From a virus (Duplodnaviria > Heunggongvirae > Uroviricota > Caudoviricetes): DNA of 5,365 bases. How positions within the stretch are numbered: position 1 is the stretch's first letter; every line of letters begins with the position of its first letter. This document shows, piece after piece, positions 4,094-4,151 of the stretch. Position numbers and translations under genes: made by a program. A model generated the notes under the pieces. It was given only the letters and a program-made list of their open reading frames with translations, did no database searches and was not told the origin of the DNA. The stretch lies in the IMG/VR virus record IMGVR_UViG_2602041568_000011. The stretch is one strand, 5' to 3'.

Positions 4094-4151
4094 ATTATGT
4101 CGGCATTAGTGAAGCGATACGTTAGCATCGCTTCACTAATGCCGACATAAT
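4094..4151. repeat. Perfect 25-bp inverted repeat (ATTATGTCGGCATTAGTGAAGCGAT / ATCGCTTCACTAATGCCGACATAAT) around an 8-nt loop ACGTTAGC
   Basis: Exact reverse-complement arms seen directly. It lies in the AT-rich spacer between the methyltransferase 3' end and the nin genes. There is no flanking U-tract on either strand. Confidence 0.9.

Follow-up and report, generated by a model that had tools for sequence, protein, structure and literature searches.

Template switching at quasi-palindromes has been established experimentally in E. coli and documented by comparative studies (PMC7202029, PMC5941160, PMC8794818). When the arms of a repeat are perfect, inversion of the spacer between them is a known outcome of intermolecular template switching, and it tends to come after homogenization of the arms (PMC8604942). 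The inverted repeat analyzed here is located at positions 4094 to 4151 of a 5,365-nt stretch of viral DNA, the whole of which we refer to as the window. It is most probably a perfected quasi-palindrome, a product of replication template switching in a dead insertion sequence (IS) and not a designed element. As such, the repeat is a new, unusually complete instance of a known mutational phenomenon rather than a new kind of element.

The window represents the delayed-early to late regulatory region of a lambdoid prophage, which is read on the minus strand. In this direction, it opens with the 3' end of a hok locus (5250 to 5365), followed by a gene for an FkbM-family methyltransferase (4317 to 5203, minus strand) that is split by a (GCTGG)8 tract at 4742 to 4781. 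Downstream of the methyltransferase gene comes a stretch of some 520 nt without annotated genes, which holds the repeat, and past this stretch the order is a 129-amino-acid open reading frame (ORF129), DUF968, RusA, a Q-like antiterminator, four tRNAs, and a holin. Immediately after the Q-like gene, beside a terminator-like AAAAACCCGC...GCGGGTTTTG hairpin, positions 1208 to 1281 on the minus strand weakly match isrK and isrJ, small RNAs of Salmonella prophages, at scores short of the gathering cutoff (22.7 and 24.5 bits; E of about 0.1 to 0.2); this may be the late-promoter leader RNA region. The tRNA cluster (793 to 1102, minus strand) comprises Met-CAT, Lys-TTT, Thr-TGT, and Gly-TCC. Otherwise related carriers have Gly and Thr only, Lys and Ile, or Arg in its place, indicating that the backbones around the cargo described below are highly mosaic. 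A second perfect inverted repeat, with 16-bp arms (TTATGAATGATCGCCT) at 661 to 676 and 718 to 733 and a 41-nt spacer, is located in the interval that separates the tRNA cluster from the holin gene. At the other end of the window, the hok 3' region (5250 to 5365) matches PP818812.1, from Actinobacillus phage vB_Apl-pPE4, at 97%, which is unexpected for a Pasteurellaceae phage and suggests either an E. coli-derived segment or contamination.

Compared with related phages, the segment from 3764 to 5249 is cargo, composed of an IS remnant and an AT-rich methyltransferase cassette, and in related phages that lack it homology breaks at 3763/3764 and 5249/5250. Of 5,426 complete E. coli genomes, 4 contain the full 58-mer, in one copy each and always in the same context, and two IMG/VR contigs have it as well, the window itself coming from one of them. 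A 21-nt core of the arm was likewise found in two viral contigs and was absent from the species-representative genomes and metagenome contigs searched; none of the plasmids searched carried the repeat. Apart from the simple sequence repeat (SSR) in the methyltransferase gene and the flip of the spacer discussed below, the cargo is nearly invariant among carriers (0 to 2 single nucleotide polymorphisms in 1.45 kb), and conservation of the repeat can therefore be read neither as selection nor as neutrality. A diverged copy of the methyltransferase gene is present beside hok in strain TUM9812, where the stop codon (4316) marks the exact end of homology and the palindrome is missing beyond it. This excludes the repeat as a part of the methyltransferase cassette and, together with the mapped boundaries, shows that it belongs neither to that cassette nor to the edge of the cargo.

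The methyltransferase gene itself deserves a separate comment. The (GCTGG)n tract at 4742 to 4781 has 8 units in the window, 12 in E41, 3 in tcmA_3, 17 in VTB97432v, and 10 in E9, and only the version with 10 units yields an intact protein of 298 amino acids. The diverged TUM9812 homologue has 34 units. From these sequences, the gene looks like a slipped-strand, phase-variable contingency gene carried on an E. coli prophage. The second viral contig, IMGVR_UViG_2602041579_000011, otherwise equals the window and shows a net difference of 20 nt at the edge of the SSR (4729 to 4765 in this contig, L008, versus 4729 to 4785 in the window), lacking ATCAATACACT and having fewer repeat units. This may reflect either real SSR-associated variation or a difference in assembly.

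As for the repeat proper, a repeat search of the window recovered it exactly where the initial annotation had placed it, with a left arm at 4094 to 4118 (ATTATGTCGGCATTAGTGAAGCGAT), an 8-nt spacer at 4119 to 4126 (ACGTTAGC), and a right arm at 4127 to 4151 that is the exact reverse complement of the left, so that the 25-nt arms are 100% complementary. The description as a 58-bp perfect palindrome holds for the arms, but strictly speaking we are dealing with an inverted repeat around a spacer that is not itself palindromic. Its non-random nature, also claimed at the outset, was borne out: when the window was shuffled 200 times with its dinucleotides preserved, the longest perfect stems closing loops of 3 to 20 nt were 7 to 13 bp in length, and about 9e-11 stems of 25 bp or more are expected analytically. 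The predicted RNA hairpin has a folding energy of -46 kcal/mol on the plus strand and -48 kcal/mol on the minus strand (z = -7.5 in context), and the predicted DNA hairpin reaches -29.3 kcal/mol (z = -11.5). We also agree that this is not a canonical intrinsic terminator. No U-tract adjoins it on either side, the sequence continuing as TAGCGAGTAG on the plus strand and as GCTTTACTGG on the minus strand, with hairpin tails of TAGCGAGT and GCTTTACT, respectively, and a terminator scan of 3300 to 5365 returned no terminator-like sites. No Rfam match overlapped 3800 to 4320, even at E <= 1. The assignment to an AT-rich spacer is roughly right with respect to composition, as the GC content around the repeat is 40 to 45%, versus 31 to 35% in the methyltransferase gene and 51 to 59% in the phage backbone, but the region is the remnant of an insertion sequence rather than a spacer.

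This is evident from a sensitive blastn search, in which the segment from 3760 to 4320 matched loci annotated as IS4 family transposase in 644 E. coli genomes with 71 to 81% identity. The remnant runs from 3772 to about 4238 on the minus strand and is about 75 to 81% identical to the nearest relatives in our sample, which does not include the true ancestor. It consists of the right end of the IS with the C terminus of the transposase (3772 to 3911 and 3961 to 4010) and of the transposase N terminus with its 5' leader (4079 to 4238), both on the minus strand. The former start codon, an ATG on the minus strand, is at 4163 to 4165, and the repeat covers former codons 5 to 24, approximately. At the protein level, a remnant open reading frame aligns to transposase residues 316 to 346, and the N-terminal remnant frame gave no BLASTP match to the transposase, as is to be expected from the templated rewriting described below; it is nucleotide homology that supports this end. 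An intact copy in UTI89 scores 344 bits against NF033591 (cutoff, 152) and also matches Pfam DDE_Tnp_1. Compared with such copies, the remnant lacks some 860 bp of internal sequence as well as the terminal repeat on the side of the transposase start, the joint of the internal deletion falling between about 4011 and 4063, 30 to 80 bp from the inverted repeat. With only N- and C-terminal transposase fragments left and one terminal repeat absent, it can be dismissed as a functional IS.

The surviving terminal repeat of the IS (3772 to 3787; CGCTGAGAGATCCCCA) abuts what remains of an intrinsic terminator of the phage, of which a T-run is left at 3753 to 3763 on the minus strand. In phage vB_EcoM-606R7, this terminator is intact (ACCCGCTTCGGCGGGT followed by TTTGTTTTTT), and it was disrupted by the IS insertion. 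The wider IS group shows a similar pattern: among loci L009 to L091, 42 of 77 distinct ends abut an A-run followed by CCCGC and 3 to 7 nt, compared with 7 of 3,360 random positions, and GGGCGGGT is present in the IS some 20 nt inward from one of its ends. By these sequence counts, this IS4-family group appears to insert into intrinsic-terminator hairpins. Our literature search retrieved no description of terminator-hairpin targeting by IS4-family elements and nothing relevant on ISSfl9. Near the other end of the remnant, a 10-bp repeat formed by AGGCATAGAG (4160 to 4169) and CTCTATGCCT (4213 to 4222) makes up a hairpin (4160 to 4222, minus strand) that spans the transposase start codon on the minus-strand RNA and is invariant in all aligned IS relatives. 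In IS10 and IS50, a fold-back of this kind blocks translation of read-through transcripts, and by analogy the conserved hairpin may do the same here.

The homologous site in the relatives of the IS reveals the state from which the repeat arose. We aligned the window with six IS relatives and then with 59 genomic and 20 viral loci that were collected with a conserved 21-mer seed from Salmonella, Citrobacter, Klebsiella, Pantoea, Serratia, Edwardsiella, Yersinia, Limnobaculum, and others. Among 32 distinct relatives from many Enterobacterales, the site pairs at 9 to 15 of the 25 arm positions (median, 13) and is perfect in none, reading roughly ATTTTGTCGGTATTTGTGAAACGG. / GCTAA.GC / ATC.CGGAAGAAATTCTGACATACT across left arm, spacer, and right arm. 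The left arm is the original one, being identical to the IS consensus at 19 of 25 positions and to the Salmonella arizonae copies at 22 of 25. In contrast with this, the core of the right arm (4132 to 4143) retains only 5 of 12 positions of the IS sequence GGAAGAAATTCT, which is strongly conserved in the relatives because part of the transposase N terminus is encoded there. Each changed base in this core is the complement of the left arm, such that the patch has been overwritten by the complement of left-arm positions 4102 to 4113. The rewritten block is bordered on both sides by stems that are already paired in the closest relatives (L029 and L067): an inner stem (4114 to 4118 with 4127 to 4131), which in these two reads GCGGT/ATCGC and forms four Watson-Crick pairs and one G-T pair, and an outer stem (4094 to 4101 with 4144 to 4151), in which 5 or 6 of 8 positions pair in the relatives, and 5 of 8 in the closest ones.

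Both orientations of the loop are found among the carriers. E. coli tcmA_3, with arms and flanks identical to those of the window, has GCTAACGT as its spacer, which is the window's spacer in exact reverse complement. Since the spacer reads GCTAA[A/C/G]GC in all IS relatives, sequence comparison identifies the tcmA_3 orientation as the ancestral one and that of the window, E41, VTB97432v, E9, and the second viral contig as derived. tcmA_3 also keeps the IS-ancestral A at 3801, and given that the carriers differ by 0 to 2 single nucleotide polymorphisms, one inversion on the branch leading to the other carriers suffices. The combination of perfect arms with the ancestral orientation comes from one assembly only. 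However, an inversion somewhere in this lineage would be required even if the tcmA_3 assembly were wrong, because the window's spacer has the opposite orientation to that of every IS relative.

How might these states have come about? In the nin region of a lambdoid prophage, an IS4-family element inserted into an intrinsic terminator, and the element subsequently decayed. The 5' coding part of its transposase gene already contained a weak inverted repeat, with a 5-bp inner stem, an 8-nt loop, and an outer stem pairing at 5 or 6 of 8 positions. From there, we infer the order and the molecular route of the switches as follows. A nascent strand whose synthesis had passed through the left arm and the loop and some 5 nt into the right arm could fold back on the inner stem, copy its own left arm, and rejoin the proper template at the outer stem, which amounts to an intramolecular template switch. 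Such fold-back copying would exchange about 12 nt of the right arm for the exact complement of the left arm and thereby produce 25 of 25 pairs around the original loop, the state seen in tcmA_3. A later intermolecular, cross-strand switch between the now perfect arms would invert the 8-nt spacer and give rise to the state seen in the window. The left arm differs at positions 4, 11, 15, and 24, and these differences need additional point mutations or switches in the opposite direction; hence, a single event does not explain everything, and the history must have comprised more than one. The resulting hairpin is probably a neutral by-product without a selected function. An incidental effect at the RNA level is conceivable: the repeat is transcribed in sense with the methyltransferase gene and the Q-region genes downstream of it, and the predicted 25-bp duplex might be cleaved by RNase III or hinder exonucleases. 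Any such consequence for the read-through transcript would be incidental.

That such an RNA effect is more than incidental seems unlikely to us, although this is the leading alternative. The hairpin could act as a 3'-end stabilizer, an RNase III site, or an insulating barrier that separates the methyltransferase message from ORF129, DUF968, RusA, and Q, and several features are compatible with this. It lies in the sense orientation 166 nt downstream of the methyltransferase stop codon on the minus-strand transcript, its predicted stability on that strand is very high, and perfect duplexes spanning about two helical turns are cut by the RNase III of E. coli. Moreover, with the phage's own terminator broken by the IS insertion, a substitute barrier is conceivable. 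Yet the hairpin has neither a U-tract nor a terminator call, falls outside the methyltransferase cassette (as TUM9812 illustrates), derives from transposase coding DNA, and comes with no conservation signal. Its perfect symmetry does not call for selection either: a known mutational mechanism accounts for it, so that no RNA stabilizer or protein-binding site is needed. It is similarly improbable, perhaps slightly more so, that the hairpin was co-opted after an accidental birth, either taking the place of the destroyed terminator and, by RNA processing or insulation, setting the phase-variable methyltransferase gene apart from Q, the regulator of the late genes, or, more remotely, serving as a recombinase-free invertible mini-promoter. 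An invertible promoter in its own right is very doubtful. The spacer flip moves a sigma-70-like sequence (TTAGCA-18 nt-CATAAT) from one strand to the other, and since the -35-like hexamer spans the junction of spacer and arm, it is the orientation of the spacer that sets the strand. The predicted site is on the plus strand of the window (4122 to 4151), from where it would fire antisense into the methyltransferase gene, and on the minus strand of tcmA_3 (L003, 6374 to 6345), from where it would be directed toward ORF129, DUF968, RusA, and Q. However, the match is 9 of 12 with an 18-nt spacer and no extended -10, and such matches are near chance expectation in this AT-rich region (9 found versus 5.4 +/- 2.5 expected). 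One flipped genome is known, for which one event on the tree is enough, and no recombinase is associated with the site. A switch driven by a recombinase was rejected, with no recombinase gene in or next to the cargo and an invertible segment of 8 bp.

A binding site for a dimeric protein, be it a repressor, a transposase, or a host factor, would explain the dyad symmetry, which is the one feature that speaks for it. The 25-bp arms, though, far exceed operator half-sites, there is one copy per genome with no second site in the window, and the cargo contains no gene for a cognate regulator; for a transposase in particular, the site is non-palindromic in every intact IS relative, which rules it out as a transposase-binding site of this IS. 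We consider such a role highly improbable. Of the four options in the initial annotation, the one that invokes a mobile-element remnant is on the right track in general, although its details do not hold, and the others are mostly unsupported. The initial annotation had suggested a remnant of a miniature inverted-repeat element or, alternatively, a cruciform-prone recombination or integration hotspot marking the edge of the cargo, and the repeat indeed lies within mobile-element debris, inside a decayed IS4-family element and close to its deletion joint. Nevertheless, the arms are not terminal repeats abutted to each other: they lie in the N-terminal coding part of the transposase open reading frame, and the terminus of the IS is at 3772. 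The copy number check proposed along with these ideas turned up a rare, single-copy sequence and no repeat family, with no further copies in the 5,426 E. coli genomes, the species representatives, or the metagenomes, which leads us to reject a miniature inverted-repeat transposable element (MITE). The edge-of-cargo idea did not survive the comparison with related phages, in which the breaks map away from the repeat, 330 bp from it at the 3763/3764 edge and about 1.1 kb at the 5249/5250 edge, while all carriers share the same context. Abutted ends or a boundary hotspot are therefore the least plausible of the explanations considered. Part of the arm, TAATGCCGA, resembles the terminal repeat of IS4, but the arm is internal to the transposase open reading frame and the terminal repeat of this IS group is different (CGCTGAGG...). 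An attC-like site was rejected on inspection, as the ends lack R'/R'' core sites and the stem has no extrahelical bases.

Taken as a perfected quasi-palindrome, the repeat alone opens no new biological question, but it does hold a caution. A perfect 25-bp inverted repeat is striking and invites functional stories, even though replication template switching in dead DNA can yield one. What makes the case instructive is that three states survive, namely, an imperfect ancestor in the IS relatives and, once the arms are perfect, both the ancestral and the flipped orientation of the loop, which together provide a clean natural example in E. coli of arm homogenization followed by spacer inversion. 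The repeat could also serve as a natural reporter of template-switch rates. Of more interest are two by-products of the analysis, a pentanucleotide repeat that is highly variable within the methyltransferase gene of the prophage and what appears to be a preference of the IS group for terminator hairpins.

In comparison with known systems, the locus most resembles quasi-palindrome correction as formulated in the Ripley model and as observed with the thyA and lacZ reporters of E. coli and in natural cases from Proteobacteria and yeast (PMC7202029, PMC5941160, PMC8604942, PMC8794818). The features by which template switching is recognized are found here as well: the inverted repeat is imperfect in its ancestral form, one arm shows a clustered multinucleotide change that reproduces the complement of the other, the switch points coincide with short preexisting stems, and in a sister sequence the same arms enclose the exact reverse complement of the spacer. 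The scale differs from that of most reported natural cases, with a larger patch of about 12 nt rewritten, 10 to 16 unpaired positions removed, and a stem of 25 bp as the outcome, and the 8-nt spacer is longer than the inverted spacers described in yeast, which involve 2 to 5 substituted bases (PMC8604942). Also unlike the reported cases, the event occurred in a pseudogenized IS within a prophage, where protein-level selection does not apply, and more than one event is needed. To the IS4-family elements of the NF033591 type, such as the copy between narI and tyrV in UTI89, the remnant shows nucleotide homology of 75 to 81% at its two ends. It also has in common with them the terminal repeat CGCTGAG(A/G)GATCCCCA, the hairpin conserved at the start codon, and an insertion site beside a terminator-like CCCGC hairpin; ISSfl9 of Shigella phage SfII is a more distant likeness. 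In contrast to these elements, the copy in the window has lost about 860 bp of transposase sequence and one terminal repeat, so it cannot transpose, and it alone has the perfect repeat. The Rho-independent and moron terminators of lambdoid phages are comparable in that a stable hairpin sits downstream of an accessory gene on the transcribed strand, but the stem in the window is two to five times longer than is typical of terminators, has only 40% GC, lacks a U-tract, and is of unrelated origin. Finally, small hairpin-loop inversions are familiar from chloroplast noncoding DNA, where a short loop flip-flops between perfect arms without a recombinase. The spacer flip described here is of the same form, albeit in another type of genome and with one flip documented.
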